DNA of 64,000 nucleotides from Minisyncoccota bacterium (lineage in GTDB: Bacteria; Patescibacteriota; Minisyncoccia; Phycocordibacterales; UBA5272), in contig JAGOQU010000005.1 of assembly GCA_018063165.1 (NCBI GenBank), positions 1,674-65,673 on the forward strand, read 5' to 3'. A program made the translations under genes and the position numbers. Position 1 is the stretch's first letter, and the number at the start of each line of letters is the position of its first letter. The notes beneath the pieces are model-generated. The model was not told the DNA's origin. It saw nothing but the letters and a program-made list of their open reading frames with translations, and did no database searches. This document shows positions 412-63,523 of this stretch, piece by piece.

Positions 412-427
412 GTACAGTGACAACAGA

Positions 428-527
428 GAAAGTGACCTGCGTCACTTTCGTTAGGGATCGAATAGGGTTCGCGAACCTGCTTCGAGCAAAGCGAGGCAGG
501 TTTGTGAACGATCCCTACTGGGGGCAC
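428..527 (+). repeat. tRNA-linked structured element, copy 1
   Basis: Hairpin gaaagtgaCCTGCGtcactttc, core ttagggatcgaatagggttcgcgaacctgcttcgagcaaagcgaggcaggtttgtgaacg, then a copy of the tRNA-Lys 3' end gatccctactgggggca. Followed by its own terminator-like hairpin at 535-568. Confidence 0.6.
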
Positions 528-577
528 TATAATAAAAACATCTCTCATGTATTCGTGAGAGATGTTTTTATTATTAG

Positions 578-687
578 TAACAACAGAACACGACACCTGC
601 GTGTCGTGTGTTAGGGATCGAATAGGGTTCGCGAACATGCTTCGAGCAAAGCAAGGCAGGTTTGTGAACGATCCCTACTGGGAGCAC
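578..687 (+). repeat. tRNA-linked structured element, copy 2 (tandem)
   Basis: Hairpin acacgacaCCTGCGtgtcgtgt: same loop, fully compensatory stem change versus copy 1. Same core with 3 substitutions. Ends gatccctactgggagca. Terminator-like hairpin at 699-735. Confidence 0.6.
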
Positions 688-838
688 AGAAGTAAAGTAA
701 AAATCCACTTGGATTACCGAGTGGATTTATACTTTACATGTAAACCATTTTACTTTTGCACTGTTGTACGTGACGCAGAATAGTACGATAAATTTTTATC
801 TATAAACACTAATCACATATTTCTGATATAATTCTTAC

Positions 839-5867: not shown

Positions 5868-5900
5868 AACGCAACGTAACACGTTGCGTGATTTATTTTT
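5868..5900 (+). terminator. hairpin + T-run after tRNA-Leu(TAG)
   Basis: gaacgcaacgt-aaca-cgttgcgtga followed by tttatttttt. Confidence 0.6.
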
Positions 5901-6065
5901 TACCCGGGAAAGGACTTGAACTGAGACACTAGCGAAGCCAGTTTTTGAATCAGCAGATTCACGGCTTGGCCGTAAAAACTGTTGTGTCGAAGTCGGGGTC
6001 GCGAAACAATACTTTTACAAATGTATTCATTGTGTAAAAGTATATGTTTGGTGACCAAGTCCTGT
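5901..6065 (+). repeat. divergent tRNA-linked structured element (antisense copy of the tRNA-Leu 3' end plus family core)
   Basis: acccgggaaaggacttgaac is the exact reverse complement of the last 20 nt of tRNA-Leu(TAG). Downstream are ggggtcgcgaaac, a hairpin, then tttggtgaccaagtcct resembling the tRNA T-arm. Confidence 0.45.
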
Positions 6066-6118
6066 GACCTGCTGATTACTATTTGTGGACCACAAATAAT
6101 GCTAGTATATATGGATAA

Positions 6119-17019: not shown

Positions 17020-17100
17020 CTTTTTATATAAAGAACAAGATAAAATACATACTACAACAAAAAAGAAAGAAAGACGAATCTATACAGAATTATAATAATT

Positions 17101-17230
17101 CAATCTTTATACCAATAACACCATATTTATCCTGATCTTCTACAGGATAAAATTTACAAATTTCATTAAGAAGAAACTCCTTTGAGTCTCCACCAAAATA
17201 ATTTGAAGGAAAATCAGAAAATAACTTTTC
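17101..17230 (-). pseudogene. 3' fragment of an ASCH-domain gene (degraded duplicate of the 3' end of 19095-19433)
   Basis: ~130 nt near-identical to 19098-19230 (caatctttataccaataacaccatatttatc...aaggaaaatcagaaaa) with no N-terminal part. Confidence 0.7.
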
Positions 17231-17289
17231 AAAAGAGAATAGGTTACAAAAGCACTAGCTTCGTTCAAGAAGCTTTCGAGACCCCAGTT

Positions 17290-17400
17290 CGTGTCGGTCA
17301 CGTACGAGACGCAGATTTGAGACTCGGTCACAAAACTACCTCGCTTCGCTCGAAGTAGTTTCGCGACCCCTATTCTCGTCTCACGTACATGACGCAGGTC
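17290..17400 (-). repeat. tRNA-linked structured element family member (degenerate 3' end)
   Basis: Minus-strand read: hairpin gtacatgaCCTGCGtcatgtac, then gagacgagaataggggtcgcgaaactacttcgagcgaagcgaggtagttttgtgaccgagtctc. Confidence 0.5.
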
Positions 17401-17706
17401 ATGTACTTCATACCCATCATGTGTGAAATAAAAGACCTCACTAAATCGTGAGGTCTTTTATTTCACACATGTGCACAAGATGGGTGGCTATCCGAACTTT
17501 TAAAGTGTGCTCTCTCAATCAAAACTTCTATAAAATCATTGGAAAATTCTCTAAATTTACCAAATACCAAACATTGACTACCTATTGTGTTAATGTTATT
17601 ATGTAGAAACTTCTCGAATAATCTTGAAGTATCCGCAGCTCTTTGCAAAACCCTTGAGTTACACAACTTGTTTTAACAAGCCAGTACTCATCACAGGAGA
17701 AATACC

Positions 17707-19094: not shown

Positions 19095-19433
19095 TTATTC
19101 TAGCTCAATCTTTATACCAATAACACCATATTTATCTTGTTCTTCTTTGGGGTAAAATTTACAAATTTCATCAAGAAGAAACTCCTTTGAGTCTCCACCA
19201 AAATAATCTGAAGGAAAATCAGAAAACATCTTTTCAAATGATGGGTAACGATATAGTGCCGTCACTTTTGTTTTTACCATATTGTCAGGATTTTCATTTT
19301 GAGAGAAAATAACATCGTCGCCAATATTAATTATTGAACGTTTTTCGTCGAAAAGTCGTGACTCAATAATTTTTCTTCCGTTCACAATTTTTTCATAAGG
19401 CTCTTGAGTAAGCTTCATTTGATGTACAGACAT
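19095..19433 (-). CDS. ASCH-domain protein (YqfB-like size)
   Basis: 112 aa. MKLTQEPYEKIVNGRKIIESRLFDEKRSIINIGDDV ASCH signature. Confidence 0.6.
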   Translation of the reverse strand: MSVHQMKLTQEPYEKIVNGRKIIESRLFDEKRSIINIGDDVIFSQNENPDNMVKTKVTALYRYPSFEKMFSDFPSDYFGGDSKEFLLDEICKFYPKEEQDKYGVIGIKIELE

Positions 19434-19498
19434 ATTATATTAGAATTTATTATTATAAATATAAGAATACCATAAATATTTATAATTATTAAGAGCTG

Positions 19499-19601
19499 TG
19501 CTGGAGGAGAGACTTGGTCACAGTTTCTATTCCTCGCAAGCTCGTCATAATAGAAACCGCGACCCCTATTCTCGTCTCCGCAAGCAAAGCAGTTTGCTTG
19601 C
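19499..19601 (-). repeat. tRNA-linked structured element downstream of tRNA-Leu(CAA)
   Basis: Minus-strand read: hairpin gcaagcaaaCTGCtttgcttgc, then ggagacgagaataggggtcgcg, hairpin gtttctatt...aatagaaac, then tgtgaccaagtctctcctccagca mimicking the tRNA-Leu(CAA) 3' end. Confidence 0.55.
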
Positions 19602-19620
19602 TTCCTCATGAAACACAGTG

Positions 19621-19662
19621 ACCACAAAAACACCCAAGTAGCTACTTGGGTGTTTTTGTGGT
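19621..19662. terminator. long hairpin terminator 3' of tRNA-Leu(CAA)
   Basis: accacaaaaacacccaagtagctacttgggtgtttttgtggt perfect inverted repeat. Confidence 0.7.
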
Positions 19663-19666
19663 CATG

Positions 19667-19748
19667 TGCCGGAGGAGAGACTCGAACTCTCACACCTTGC
19701 GATACACGATTTTGAGTCGTGCGCGTCTACCATTCCGCCACTCCGGCA
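19667..19748 (-). tRNA. tRNA-Leu(CAA)
   Basis: Reverse complement GCCGGAGTGGCGGAATGGTAGACGCGCACGACTCAAAATCGTG + variable arm TATCGCAAGGTGTG + AGAGTTCGAGTCTCTCCTCCGGCA. Confidence 0.8.
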
Positions 19749-20026
19749 TATATTTAATTTTTAACCTTCATTACTTATAGAATATCAAATAAGTAATTTA
19801 TCTTTTCTCGGAATGGTAACCATTCTTTGGTCGTACGTCTGCTGACTTCCGACATCTTCGAGACCAAGTCTCTCGACCACTCCGGCATATATTTAATTTT
19901 TAACCTTCATTACTTATAGAATATCAAATAAGTAATTTATCTTTTCTCGGAATGGTAACCATTCTTTGGTCGTACGTCTGCTGACTTCCGACATCTTCGA
20001 GACCAAGTCTCTCGACCACTCCGGCA
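19749..20026. repeat. two perfect 139-bp tandem repeats, each ending in a copy of the first 11 nt of tRNA-Leu(CAA)
   Basis: Unit tatatttaatttttaacc...ggaatggtaaccattc...atcttcgagaccaagtctctcgaccactccggca at 19749-19887 and 19888-20026. A third partial start follows at 20027. Confidence 0.8.
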
Positions 20027-20136
20027 TATATTTAATTTTAATAAACAGTATGATTATACCACGTCATACCGTTTGTGTAATCTGTCTATTTTTTGTAGAA
20101 TACATTCCAGAAATACTTAGAAAAGGAGTTCTTTAT

Positions 20137-59283: not shown

Positions 59284-60612
59284 ATGAAAATAGATGCACC
59301 AAAAGGATATGAAGTACCTATAACACTTCAAACAAAAGAAGTTAAAGCAAGATATTGTTTGTATGCAAGAAAATCAACAGAGTCAGAAGAAAGACAAGTA
59401 CTTTCAATTGATTCGCAAATTAAAGAAATGCTCGAGCTTGCAGAAAGAGAAGGTCTTGAAATAGTTGCTATGAAGCGAGAGTCCCACTCAGCAAAAGAAC
59501 AAGGACAGCGTCCTGTATTTAATGAAATAGTCGATGAAATCAAAGCTAAGAAATATAATGCAATACTCACATGGGCACCAGATCGTATTAGTAGAAATGC
59601 GGGAGATCTCGGAAAGATAGTAGACCTCATGGATGCGGGACTGCTTCATGAAATACGCACCTATGGGCAAAAGTTTTCAAACAACCCTAATGAGAAGTTC
59701 TTGCTGATGATACTGGGCTCACAAGCAAAGCTAGAAAATGATAACAGAGGTGTGAATGTGAAGCGTGGACTTCGCACAAGAGCTGAGATGGGACTATGGG
59801 CAGGTACAGCACCACTCGGATATTTAAATCAAAGACATATGGATAGAAAGTGCCAAGTAGTCATAGATCCTGATAGAGCTCCTGTAGTAAAGAAAATGTT
59901 TGAGAAAGTAGCATACGAAAAATGGTCGGGAAGAAAGGTGTACAATTGGCTTCGTTTTGAAGCCAATTTTTATACGAGAGGCAATAAGCCTCTTACACTA
60001 AGCGGTGTCTACAGAGTGCTCACTCACAGCTTTTATTATGGAGTTTTTGAAAGACCTAAAAATAGCGGCAACTGGTATCAAGGTAAACATGAGCCGATTA
60101 TAACAAAAGAGTTATTTGATCAAGTACAAGCACAACTGAAGCGAGATAATATACAGAGAGAAAATAAAGAATTTGCTTTCACTAAACTATTTACTTGTGG
60201 ATATTGTGGTAGCGGTATATCGGCAGAAGAAAAGTGGAAAGATTTAAAAGATGGTACACATGCAAAATACATATACTACTCCTGTAGTAGGGCGAGGGAT
60301 AGAAACTGTAAGAATAAATATATTAGAGAAGAAGAATTGATTGGGGAACTACTCAAAATGCTAGACAAGGTAGATATTAACGAGCTTGGCATGAGACAAA
60401 AGCTCGAGGAAGAAATAGCAAGATTTAATATATTCCAAAGATCAGTGTTACAAACGACAGTAAAGTCAGACAAAGATCATGTCACTGATATTCGTAACTA
60501 TGCGAAGTATATTCTTAAGGAAGGTACAGTGATGGAAAAGCGTGAGTTACTTGCTAATTTAAGGAGCAGGATTGTGTATAAGGATAAGGAGTTAAAATTA
60601 AACAATTGCTAA
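59284..60612 (+). CDS. large serine recombinase
   Basis: N-terminal resolvase domain with catalytic Ser in YARKSTESEERQVLSIDSQ, recombinase domain, C-terminal zinc ribbon CGYCGSGISAEE...YYSCS. 442 aa. Confidence 0.9.
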   Translation: MKIDAPKGYEVPITLQTKEVKARYCLYARKSTESEERQVLSIDSQIKEMLELAEREGLEIVAMKRESHSAKEQGQRPVFNEIVDEIKAKKYNAILTWAPDRISRNAGDLGKIVDLMDAGLLHEIRTYGQKFSNNPNEKFLLMILGSQAKLENDNRGVNVKRGLRTRAEMGLWAGTAPLGYLNQRHMDRKCQVVIDPDRAPVVKKMFEKVAYEKWSGRKVYNWLRFEANFYTRGNKPLTLSGVYRVLTHSFYYGVFERPKNSGNWYQGKHEPIITKELFDQVQAQLKRDNIQRENKEFAFTKLFTCGYCGSGISAEEKWKDLKDGTHAKYIYYSCSRARDRNCKNKYIREEELIGELLKMLDKVDINELGMRQKLEEEIARFNIFQRSVLQTTVKSDKDHVTDIRNYAKYILKEGTVMEKRELLANLRSRIVYKDKELKLNNC

Positions 60613-61418
60613 TCAAAAACTTTAGACAACATAGCGCTAAAATCAGGGTTTGTTTTTGGATTTGGTATAGCAACTATCCCATAACCAATAGAACTACCAT
60701 CTTTTTTACTTCTTCTAACTTTATTTCTTAGATATTGTGAGTAAATGTCTGTGGAGGTTTTATATTCTCTTAGTGTCCCACTTATTGCACCGATAATAAA
60801 ATCTGCAATCTGGATACCAATATTTAAATTTGAAAATTCAATAAAGAGGTTATCAACAATGAGATTGTAATCTTTTATAAAGGAATCACTGTTAATTATT
60901 TCTTTGTAAACTTCTTTTTTAATTTTATCATCCTTAGATGAATTTTCGTTTTCATGGACAAGAATTGTTACAAAATGATTTTCCTGCCCAGCGAACTGAC
61001 ACCTCTGCATAAGATTTTGGAGTTGCATTTTTACAAAAGAATCTTGTCTTTTAATTACTTTTATTAAATCGCTTTTTCTTGAGACATTAGTAACTATTTT
61101 TATATCAAAATCAGAAATAATTTTAAAAAATGAATCTAGATACTCATGCAATTCTTTAATGCTAAATTTATCAAGGTAAAGAATGTCCTCATTAAGAGCT
61201 TTATTTTTATTTTTTAAAAAAATTGCAGATGAAATATGAGACCACTTTATTTCTTTTGTTTCTTTAAGAAAATCAAGATTAAGTTTCTTTATTTTCTTAT
61301 TTAGTTTTAAATAGTCATGAATATCAATCATGTAACCTCCTCTCAGTAACCACTCGTGATCATTGTTAAGTGTTCCTTGTTCATCTATAAAGAAAAATTT
61401 GGTTGTGTTATTTATCAT
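60609..61418 (-). CDS. DUF3800-like protein
   Basis: N-terminal FFIDEQGTL (DUF3800 starts with a similar I/YxDESG). 269 aa. Confidence 0.45.
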   Translation of the reverse strand: MINNTTKFFFIDEQGTLNNDHEWLLRGGYMIDIHDYLKLNKKIKKLNLDFLKETKEIKWSHISSAIFLKNKNKALNEDILYLDKFSIKELHEYLDSFFKIISDFDIKIVTNVSRKSDLIKVIKRQDSFVKMQLQNLMQRCQFAGQENHFVTILVHENENSSKDDKIKKEVYKEIINSDSFIKDYNLIVDNLFIEFSNLNIGIQIADFIIGAISGTLREYKTSTDIYSQYLRNKVRRSKKDGSSIGYGIVAIPNPKTNPDFSAMLSKVFD

Positions 61419-61542
61419 AAAGACATTTTACTCTTTCTAAAACAAAACACACGAAGCGTCGTGTGTTTTGCGATAACTTATGTACTCGGATCGCTACCAT
61501 CTCGTGAGAATATGGGAACACTCCGATACTAAGTTGTCAAGG

Positions 61543-61630
61543 CGGAGACGATGAGATTCGAACTCATGAGGGTATTACTACCCTGCCTCGTTAGCAGTGA
61601 GGTGCCTTCGACCAGCTCAGCCACGTCTCC
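61543..61630 (-). tRNA. tRNA-Ser(GCT)
   Basis: Reverse complement GGAGACGTGGCTGAGCTGGTCGAAGGCACCTCACTGCTAACGAGG + long variable arm CAGGGTAGTAATACCCTCATG + AGTTCGAATCTCATCGTCTCC. Confidence 0.75.
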
Positions 61631-63143: not shown

Positions 63144-63215
63144 GGCCTCATCGTCTATCGGCTAGGACACAGGCTTCTCATGCCTGGAAGCGGAGTTCGA
63201 TTCTCCGTGAGGTCA
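63144..63215 (+). tRNA. tRNA-Glu(CTC)
   Basis: GGCCTCATCGTCTATCGGCTAGGACACAGGCTTCTCATGCCTGGAAGCGGAGTTCGATTCTCCGTGAGGTCA: anticodon stem CAGGC/GCCTG, loop TTCTCAT. Confidence 0.75.
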
Positions 63216-63225
63216 CACATCCACA

Positions 63226-63258
63226 AAAATACACAGATTCTTTCTGTGTATTTTTGTT
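63226..63258 (+). terminator. terminator after tRNA-Glu
   Basis: aaaaatacacaga-ttcttt-ctgtgtatttttg. Confidence 0.7.
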
Positions 63259-63276
63259 GACTGTAATCAAAAGAAG

Positions 63277-63378
63277 TAAGTGGCCTACGTCACTTACGGG
63301 AGAATCGAATACGATGTCGCGAAACCAACTCGAGGAGTTTATGACGAGGAGTTCCATATCCGTTCTCCGTAGGGTCAC
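63277..63378 (+). repeat. tRNA-linked structured element downstream of tRNA-Glu
   Basis: Hairpin gtaagtgGCCTACGtcacttac, then acgggagaatcgaatacgatgtcgcgaaaccaactcgaggagtttatgacgaggagtt, then ccatatccgttctccgtagggtcaca mimicking the tRNA-Glu 3' end gattctccgtgaggtcaca. Confidence 0.55.
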
Positions 63379-63523
63379 AAAACTTGACAAATATACAAAA
63401 AAGAGTAGTGTGAAAAATACCAAAAGTTGTTATTTTTTGTACCATTAAAATACACAAATACACTTCTTTGGACATGTTCTTTAACATAGAAAATAGTGCC
63501 TAAATGGCGTAGAAAGGTTTGTT

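Follow-up and report, generated by a model that had tools for sequence, protein, structure and literature searches.

The stretch analysed here, which we call the window, comprises 64,000 nt of contig JAGOQU010000005.1 from a Minisyncoccota bacterium (assembly GCA_018063165.1), and the element in question lies in its far 3' part, behind a tRNA-Glu gene. This Glu element is a degenerate type-1 member of a family of structured modules that follow tRNA genes in Patescibacteria, the candidate phyla radiation (CPR): it has kept hairpin A, an antisense arm and a copy (S') of the tRNA 3' end, whereas its hairpin B has decayed. The family has no match in Rfam, and its three-helix fold is strongly supported. 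The reading that we favour, although tentatively, is that of a non-autonomous structured insertion module at CPR tRNA 3' ends, which would be amplified through the repeats S and S' and would fold as a read-through RNA.

An earlier note, made from the letters of the window alone, had described a hairpin, an antisense box, a second hairpin and a tRNA-like 3' end behind tRNA-Glu, and had assigned them to the same element family as those at other tRNA loci of the window. All of the described features were found in place. We compared them with alignment A2, which contains 93 distinct copies of the family, and with the covariance model R1 built from it, which defines type 1. The features of the locus are as follows.

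63144..63216, + strand: tRNA-Glu(CUC) gene (ARAGORN; Rfam tRNA, 50.1 bits).
63225..63255, + strand: terminator-like hairpin T1 between tRNA-Glu and the element, with an A-tract, a 12-bp stem, a 7-nt loop and a U-tract (sequence).
63276..63297, + strand: hairpin A, GTAAGTGGC-CUAC-GUCACUUAC, with a 9-bp stem (one G.U pair) and the tetraloop CUAC (sequence, fold, model R1).
63298..63309, + strand: antisense arm, the 5' strand of helix P1b (sequence; family arm rule).
63310-63326, + strand: box UACGAUGUCGCGAAACC (sequence).
63310..63361, + strand: degenerate core (local end of the model, fold, comparison with alignment A2).
63362..63379, + strand: S', a direct repeat of the tRNA-Glu 3' end, GTTCTCCGTAGGGTCACA (sequence, fold, model R1).

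The membership of the element in the family was borne out by model R1, which matched positions 63274-63370 with 29.8 bits (E 1.5e-5); the match is based on hairpin A and both arms only, and passes over 51 nt as a local end. The interval from tRNA-Glu to S' is about 145 bp long and contains no open reading frame (ORF). T1 was not called by the consensus terminator scan because its stem has few G-C pairs; a hairpin between the tRNA and the element, as here, is the arrangement of nearly all family members. The hairpin with the loop CCTACG is present, but comparison with the family gives it a 9-bp stem and a tetraloop instead of the 7-bp stem and 7-nt loop first proposed, and the tetraloop is CUAC in the Glu copy versus CUGC in the family consensus. 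The arms copy the segment 63196-63218 of tRNA-Glu, from the T-loop to the 3' end. An antisense match of 13/14 positions had been claimed, which holds only with a 1-nt indel (11/14 ungapped); the 11-mer GGAGAATCGAA (63299-63309), however, is a perfect reverse complement of tRNA-Glu TTCGATTCTCC (T-loop and 3' strand of the T-stem), and tRNA-Glu itself is its sole match when up to one mismatch is allowed.

The 3' end of the element does copy tRNA-Glu, although less faithfully than had been described: 15/19 positions are identical, in the blocks TTCTCCGT and GGTCACA, with GA changed to AG in the acceptor strand. The search at up to three mismatches did not recover this copy; we estimate the chance of a 15/19 identity within 200 nt of the tRNA at roughly 2e-4. 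The UUCUCC of S' pairs with the GGAGAA of the arm, forming the 3' strand of P1b, and is followed by the acceptor 3'-strand variant GUAGGGUC (in the tRNA, GUGAGGUC), then by A73 and CA. The same GUAGGGUCAC acceptor variant (GUAGGGUC) occurs in the elements of three loci outside the window (L160, L037 and L145). The core is where the Glu copy has decayed. The box UACGAUGUCGCGAAACC occupies the place of the family (A)AUAGGGGUCGCGAAAC, and is followed by remnants of a hairpin B apex, CGAGGAG..GACGAGGAG, which resemble hairpin B subtype 'e', while the 3' closing strand UGUGACC is gone and CCAUAUCC stands in its place. The copy thus lacks both the core (A)AUAGGGGUCGCG and a hairpin B closed by GGUCGCG/UGUGACC, by which the family is recognised. 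The second hairpin of the earlier note ('ctcgaggag ... gacgaggag') could not be upheld, as its repeats are direct and not inverted, and the hairpin B region no longer closes. As a whole, the Glu element folds no better than shuffled sequences (z -0.5).

The consensus derived from A2 consists of three helices with 27 pairs, of which 20 show compensatory double changes. In total, 96% of the cells are paired, compared with 37-43% when the partners are slid, and 564 cells are compensatory versus 177 in shuffles, with 0/500 shuffles reaching 564. G.U pairs far exceed A.C pairs on the tRNA-sense strand. The 9 bp of hairpin A all covary, and its tetraloop is CUGC; RA borders the hairpin on the 5' side and GU on the 3' side, and the distance from it to the core downstream is 12-14 nt. 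In hairpin B, the closing helix GGUCGCG/UGUGACC contains two G.U pairs; about eight discrete apical subtypes exist, and the apex is built of an A-tract, a stem and a U-tract like the local terminators. A unit reads, in order, S (the tRNA from the T-loop to the 3' end), terminator hairpin, hairpin A, arm, AAUAG, hairpin B and S'; the core measures about 95-100 nt and the unit 130-250 bp.

The spread of the family was assessed by scanning 185,579 species genomes with the pattern GAATAGGGKTCGCG-N20-50-TGTGAMC. The 106 stretches matched came nearly all from Patescibacteria/CPR bins (Saccharibacteria, Paceibacterota/Parcubacteria, Nomurabacteria, Gracilibacteria), and none of the 11 matches in other phyla scored above 26 bits with R1. 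In 695 kb of CPR loci (designated L001 onwards), R1 detected 167 copies at 97 loci. A type-1 core was located within 260 nt downstream of 95/186 tRNA genes, representing 16 amino-acid types, and 77 pattern-defined elements lay 29-130 nt behind a same-strand tRNA, again of 16 amino-acid types. The claim that each tRNA gene is followed by such an element was therefore too wide; in the window itself, tRNA-Cys and tRNA-Ser(GCU) have none. At the latter (61541-61630), only a distant terminator and no recognisable element was seen, and a DUF3800 gene (60609-61418, - strand) lies directly downstream. Orphan elements follow decayed tRNA-like 3' halves or sit in segmental duplicates. The proposal that the element should recur behind tRNA-Glu in other genomes was confirmed, as intact copies scoring 68-96 bits follow it at L037, L064, L068, L153 and L160.

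The tailoring of the arm to the neighbouring tRNA was quantified in 69 tRNA-linked elements, on which all arm and S' statistics are based. The family arm ends in ..TCGAA and is an exact complement (9/9) of the T-stem 3' strand and T-loop of its own tRNA in 41/69 elements, with 8/9 positions matching in another 18/69. It is the T-arm to which the elements are tailored, and not, as had been stated, the tRNA 3' end in itself. S' starts in the T-loop directly after UGUGACC; its T-arm part matches at 8-9 of 9 positions in 44/69 elements, whereas its acceptor part and discriminator are intact in 23/69 and random in 46/69, so that what has been retained of S' coincides exactly with its arm-pairing portion. 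In about 21 intact cases, identity to the tRNA stopped at the tRNA end plus 0-8 nt, the additional positions belonging to the trailer. Among 185 tRNA genes of the CPR loci and the window, the discriminator is followed by CA in 149 and by CCA in 20. As the identity enters the trailer and the genes carry CA and not CCA, S' is a product of duplication at the DNA level and not a copy made from mature tRNA; judged by these comparisons, its acceptor part is a relic of that duplication, which is not under selection for acceptor or discriminator identity.

These observations bear on the suggestion of the earlier note that the 3' end of the element is a substrate-like mimic of tRNA. In its fullest form, an antisense acceptor segment, hairpin A, the antisense T segment and S' would together imitate the acceptor/T-stem stack of a tRNA top half (minihelix), serving as a substrate or decoy for RNase P or RNase Z, the CCA-adding enzyme, a synthetase or a tRNA-targeting toxin. 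Hairpin A does lie exactly at the T-stem/acceptor junction of the antisense strand, and some units (L015, L051, L080, L105) combine an antisense acceptor segment with a full S'. However, both halves of the acceptor helix occur together in only 6/69 elements, and the acceptor part and discriminator, on which such a mimic would depend, have decayed in the majority. The antisense acceptor segment, where present, is part of the terminator palindrome, and it is seen at element-free tRNAs as well. The T-loop positions, which had been proposed as a check, are paired with the antisense arm and not presented, and therefore cannot mimic a T-loop; the run of S' identity into the trailer points to duplication and not to selection; and the Glu copy has no antisense acceptor segment and an acceptor strand unlike that of its tRNA. 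The mimic is thus largely refuted, and we regard it as hardly credible. Independent of the elements, many terminator palindromes also cover the trailer and the 3' strand of the acceptor, element-free tRNAs included.

Many of the substitutions in S' are C to U or A to G and keep wobble pairing. Taken jointly, this wobble-compatible drift and the surplus of G.U over A.C pairs on the tRNA-sense strand speak for the formation of helix P1b in RNA. The same features are shared by the main rival of the insertion reading, which we consider possible but the less probable of the two, namely a host 'companion RNA'. Here, a cis-encoded RNA, produced by read-through past the tRNA terminator, would pair through its arm with the T-loop and T-stem of its own tRNA transcript; S' would mask the arm until an unfolded, read-through or damaged tRNA 3' half displaced it and was captured. 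Possible uses would include cleavage of the RNase III type, assistance in folding or a sponge for 3' fragments, with hairpin B as a back-up terminator, in keeping with its terminator build. A strand-specific structure with conserved G.U pairs and loops, an arm that is exact for the real tRNA in most elements and follows it more closely than S' does, the wobble-keeping changes and the retention of only the arm-pairing part of S' are what such an RNA would leave behind, as are subtypes conserved across lineages and a fixed position and orientation behind about half or more of CPR tRNA genes. Moreover, at several tRNA-Cys loci no terminator separates the tRNA from the element, so that their co-transcription is certain there. 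On the other hand, most units sit behind a canonical terminator, a folded and modified tRNA hides its T-arm, degenerate copies such as Glu are tolerated, and no bacterial pathway with per-tRNA antisense RNAs is known. Many tRNAs are also element-free, and the presence, number and type of elements vary among related genomes, which would be unexpected for an essential partner.

This variation was observed in several forms. Tandem arrays occur at the window tRNA-Lys (three units) and at L023, L039, L095 and L160; in L160 the second unit is joined through a common TGTGACC-GAAC junction, and L102 contains a perfect duplication with a 145-nt period. The idea that the proximal unit of an array is the youngest was rejected, since R1 scores showed no consistent polarity. 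L120 and L141 form a filled/empty pair: they have in common tRNA-Glu and 3.6 kb downstream of it at 95% identity, and only L120 carries a module of about 190 nt, bounded by the tRNA end and a degenerate 3'-end copy. An orthologous Arg/Gly/Pro tRNA cluster of Saccharibacteria differs by 90-1100 bp, with different hairpin B subtypes at the same tRNA, and 55 metagenome loci with an identical tRNA-Glu 3' end are, downstream of it, empty, of type 1 or of another module type, the three states being found in different lineages. Subtypes of hairpins A and B were found in all combinations, and one 50-nt core recurs without any difference at three places: following tRNA-Pro of a Saccharibacteria bin, following tRNA-Leu(UAG) of a Nomurabacteria bin, and within the orphan unit of the window. 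Two groups of metagenome contigs (L117/L124/L136/L149 versus L123/L152/L164) are 99% identical upstream through tRNA-Glu plus 6 nt and unrelated beyond; the breakpoint of recombination that separates the L117 group from the L123 group coincides with the tRNA 3' end. A separate observation was made on L092, a contig of 3.7 kb in which two near-identical units 3.3 kb apart, one behind tRNA-Leu(UAA) and the other behind decayed tRNA-like sequence, flank three ordinary genes, one of them unusually GC-rich.

The closing helix of hairpin B may preserve a trace of the origin of the family. Its strand UGUGACC and the tRNA-Glu 3' end GGUCACA (GGUC, A73, CA) are exact reverse complements, GGGGUC matches the acceptor strand of tRNA-Glu(UUC), and the two differences between GGUCGCG and GGUCACA are both A to G, creating the two conserved G.U pairs (e.g., window 467-509). 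Hairpin B thus looks like a fossil of a tRNA-Glu 3' end, its terminator and its complement, and the occurrence of a Glu-derived hairpin B behind every kind of tRNA implies spread between loci.

The insertion reading starts from what the loci display: the structure, the linkage to tRNA genes, the tailored arm, the boundaries marked by repeats, the tandem arrays, and the differences in presence and type between related genomes. From these we infer a mode of insertion, a helper enzyme, the RNA nature of the folded strand, and its service to the element or to the host. S and S' would represent, respectively, a regenerated tRNA gene and the 3' fragment displaced by site-specific insertion in the T-loop/T-stem region. 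In tRNA-gene islands, crossover subsites at the T-loop and at the T/acceptor junction, tandem arrays and an attP of about 250 bp have been described (PMC4383910), and the arrangement of S and S' agrees with the signature given there. As the inserted DNA is only attP-sized and without a recombinase, the module would be non-autonomous and moved in trans. Units may then multiply in tandem through unequal exchange between S and S', swap subtypes of hairpins A and B by recombination, and decay from the outside in, while selection would retain hairpin A, hairpin B and the arm helix P1b. The tRNA-sense strand is the one predicted to fold, most likely as RNA produced by read-through from the tRNA promoter, and the Glu element would be an old, partly decayed copy of this module.

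Several results weigh against such an insertion. No recombinase, transposase or autonomous parent was found at the loci examined, nor did we see a free or circular form, and the type-1 core itself offered no clean pair of an empty and a filled site. The tRNA-to-copy intervals of 0.7-3 kb (L012, L044, L066, L104) and the 3.3-kb interval of L092 have no recombinase in common; in them we found a methyltransferase-like gene, Peptidase_S51, hydrolases, or an ORF that resembles a zinc-finger transposase and is unrelated. The 2.9 million viral contigs contained two matches to the family pattern, neither of which matched R1, and a phage origin was rejected on this count. The arm must match each target and is not created by a simple att-type insertion, so that it either selects the target or co-evolves with it. 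It fits the real tRNA better than S' in 22 elements and worse in 3, which a functional tie to the tRNA explains equally well, and a host function could account for the conservation of discrete subtypes across CPR and for the very high share of tRNA genes that are occupied in these streamlined genomes. Finally, elements lie on both strands within one uniformly negative GC-skew region, and thus lack the lagging-strand bias of single-strand transposons. As to the transposase-like ORF, it encodes 320 aa with an N-terminal zinc finger and lies about 190-1150 nt downstream of tRNA-Met in L104, before a perfect 3'-end copy 1.2 kb away; it is probably an unrelated insertion sequence (IS) that entered the array.

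That the arm is a programmable guide for self-directed insertion into the T-arm with a host or helper enzyme, or else serves a per-tRNA antisense surveillance by companion RNAs, we consider unlikely. Under the guide variant, the folded RNA or a single-stranded DNA would recognise the T-arm of a tRNA gene by base pairing.

The signature of an intact tRNA gene with a displaced 3' fragment, the tandem arrays, a unit length near that of attP and the breakpoints of the L117 and L123 groups at the tRNA end would also be left by inert scars, that is, attP-sized attL/attR remnants of tRNA-integrated phages or islands, which lost their interior and whose hairpins are incidental. Such scars would not be expected to show compensatory covariation in three helices and conserved loops over hundreds of copies and many tRNA types. 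One core behind 16 tRNA types would call for an equal number of integrase specificities, the loci examined showed no integrase remnants, and the family is nearly absent from viral contigs. Thus, we judge this explanation improbable.

The intact family members elsewhere in the window are better preserved than the Glu copy, with fold z scores of -4.6 to -7.6 and R1 scores of 86-99 bits. The core GGKTCGCG occurs seven times in the window, versus 0.14 occurrences expected. The members are as follows.

426..528, + strand: Lys1, behind tRNA-Lys(CUU), ending in a perfect tRNA 3'-end copy (R1 98.7 bits; fold z -7.6).
586..688, + strand: Lys2, a tandem second unit with its own terminator hairpin (R1 91.7 bits; sequence).
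About 745-790, + strand: decayed third Lys unit (sequence).
5877..6080, + strand: Leu(UAG) variant, behind tRNA-Leu(UAG) (sequence, fold, weak R1 match to hairpin B only).
17237..17408, - strand: 'orphan' unit (17.3 kb) and a degenerate second unit, neither next to a tRNA (R1 92.2 and 17.8 bits; BLAST).
19497..19603, - strand: Leu(CAA) member, behind tRNA-Leu(CAA) (R1 86.2 bits).

The orphan locus (17100-17480) is a segmental duplicate of the Leu(CAA) locus (19105-19750), as the 5' end of an ASCH gene is 92.5% identical over 134 nt (BLAST). In the duplicate, the tRNA has decayed to a pseudo-3' half, 'GTTC...GCACA', and therefore the element at 17.3 kb looks like an orphan. Directly upstream of tRNA-Leu(CAA) and overlapping its first bases, two copies of a 163-nt segment (19738-19900 and 19877-20039) are 100% identical and repeat with a period of 139 nt. 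In the Leu(UAG) variant, 19 nt are antisense to the tRNA 3' end, one hairpin is additional, the core reads CGGGGUCGCGAAAC...GGUGACC and S' is truncated (AAGUCCU); similar variants are present at L027, L078 and L079. The units take up about 1% of the window DNA, and the genes downstream of them encode Peptidase_S51, VanW, ASCH and a lipoprotein. The NCBI genome bin GCA_017992935.1 matches the window at 100% identity; public contigs with the neighbouring proteins agree with the window at 97.7-100% identity (most at 100%) and are short or uninformative on strain-level variation.

Transfer RNA genes without a type-1 core often carry another core, framed likewise by hairpin A, the arm and S', which makes type 1 one branch among a larger set of modules. 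Besides type 1, at least four core types, framed by a terminator, hairpin A, an antisense arm and a tRNA 3'-end copy, were distinguished (e.g., GAAGGGCCGCAG..GAGGGGCGGGCUGCGAG and GAACGAAAAACCGGU..GUCGGUUUUUCCCGGGGUCG), and GCGAUUAGUAAAUCG boxes recur as well; these types were found at L001, L012, L014, L023, L062, L063, L067, L068, L078, L079, L090, L099-L101 and L106, and at window positions 5877-6080. None of them corresponds to an Rfam family. In the window and 13 loci, tRNAs alone passed the gathering threshold of Rfam 15, and at E up to 10 the Lys array gave only hairpin noise. No description of such a family was found in the searchable literature on tRNA-trailing elements.

Several known structures were considered and rejected. 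A T-box riboswitch or other tRNA-sensing leader has no Rfam match at E up to 10, and the downstream genes are unrelated to the amino acid. Retron non-coding RNAs do have flanking arms, but no reverse transcriptase gene lies beside the window copies, no msr-like stems are present between the arm and hairpin B, and there are dozens of module copies per genome. The two guides of an IS110 bridge RNA cover adjacent, non-complementary halves of the target, whereas the arms of the module are complementary to each other. The cores gave no consensus matches to hammerhead, twister or K-turn motifs, and a resemblance to the helix of Ro-associated Y RNA (GGUC..GACC) was too weak and without an Rfam match.

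CPR genomes are tiny and streamlined, yet about half or more of their tRNA genes carry a module. The modules account for many of the 'partial tRNA' and palindrome calls beside tRNA genes in CPR assemblies, and R1 is a sensitive marker for this lineage. Among known systems, tRNA-gene islands and prophages with the att sites of tyrosine integrases (Islander, PMC4383910) share with the module an intact tRNA followed by a displaced 3'-end copy in the same orientation. In both, the copy begins in the T-loop/T-stem region and stops at or just past the tRNA end, and in both, tandem arrays occur; the unit length of the module is about that of attP (~250 bp). Unlike these islands, the module has no integrase or cargo, and its unit is 130-250 bp versus an Islander minimum of at least 2 kb (PMC4383910). 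Its insert is a conserved three-helix fold with a target-antisense arm, one core serving 16 tRNA types. By the Islander definition, module loci possess the tRNA and the same-orientation 3' fragment, but lack an integrase in the interval and fall short of the required 2 kb. Should the modules be mobile, they would be the smallest known elements with a tRNA-gene integration signature, and the first with arms rewritten for each target.

Repetitive extragenic palindromic sequences and bacterial interspersed mosaic elements (REP/BIME), miniature inverted-repeat transposable elements (MITE), other small bacterial palindromic repeats and the double-hairpin elements of fungal mitochondria differ from the module in their fixed ends and in their many kinds of insertion site. 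Like the module, REP/BIME, MITE and double-hairpin elements are short, non-coding, high-copy intergenic hairpins behind genes or terminators, with discrete subtypes in mosaics, strand-specific wobble pairs and common degenerate copies. To our knowledge, none of them has arms rewritten to the neighbouring gene or is restricted to tRNA genes.

In the folded single-strand sites of other mobile elements, namely the attP hairpin of CTX-phi (XerCD), integron attC and the ends of IS200/IS605, antisense and sense segments of one folded strand rebuild a target-like duplex, as in the module. They also have bulged bases beside the duplex, and insertion regenerates the target, permitting tandem arrays. 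In IS200/IS605, the guide lies 5' of a hairpin and its partner 3' of it, and guides are 4-5 nt long; the paired segments of the module measure 9-12 nt, and the module shows no strand bias. No Xer, IntI or TnpA partner was identified for the module, although no genome-wide search for a partner gene was made. The wobble-compatible drift of the module points to RNA rather than DNA, unlike these sites. Compared with IS200/IS605-type miniature elements (palindrome-associated transposable elements, PATE), hairpins A and B are unlike each other and elements lie on both strands. Mobile modules could be a natural case of guide-directed insertion, and if either the guide or the companion-RNA reading is true, they would constitute a new class of nucleic-acid-guided systems with tRNA genes as their basis.

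If the modules are instead host RNAs, they would represent a layer of tRNA biogenesis or quality control that had not been seen before, within a major uncultured bacterial branch. The closest parallels would then be the 3' external transcribed spacer (3'ETS) RNAs of tRNA transcripts, such as the 3'ETS-leuZ sponge, and other tRNA-linked small RNAs, which likewise lie directly behind a tRNA and depend on its promoter. RNAs of the 3'ETS type precede the terminator and are not known to be complementary to the tRNA or to form a repeated family behind most tRNAs. The module, in contrast, lies after the terminator in most units, carries an arm complementary to the tRNA and is repeated behind many tRNAs.

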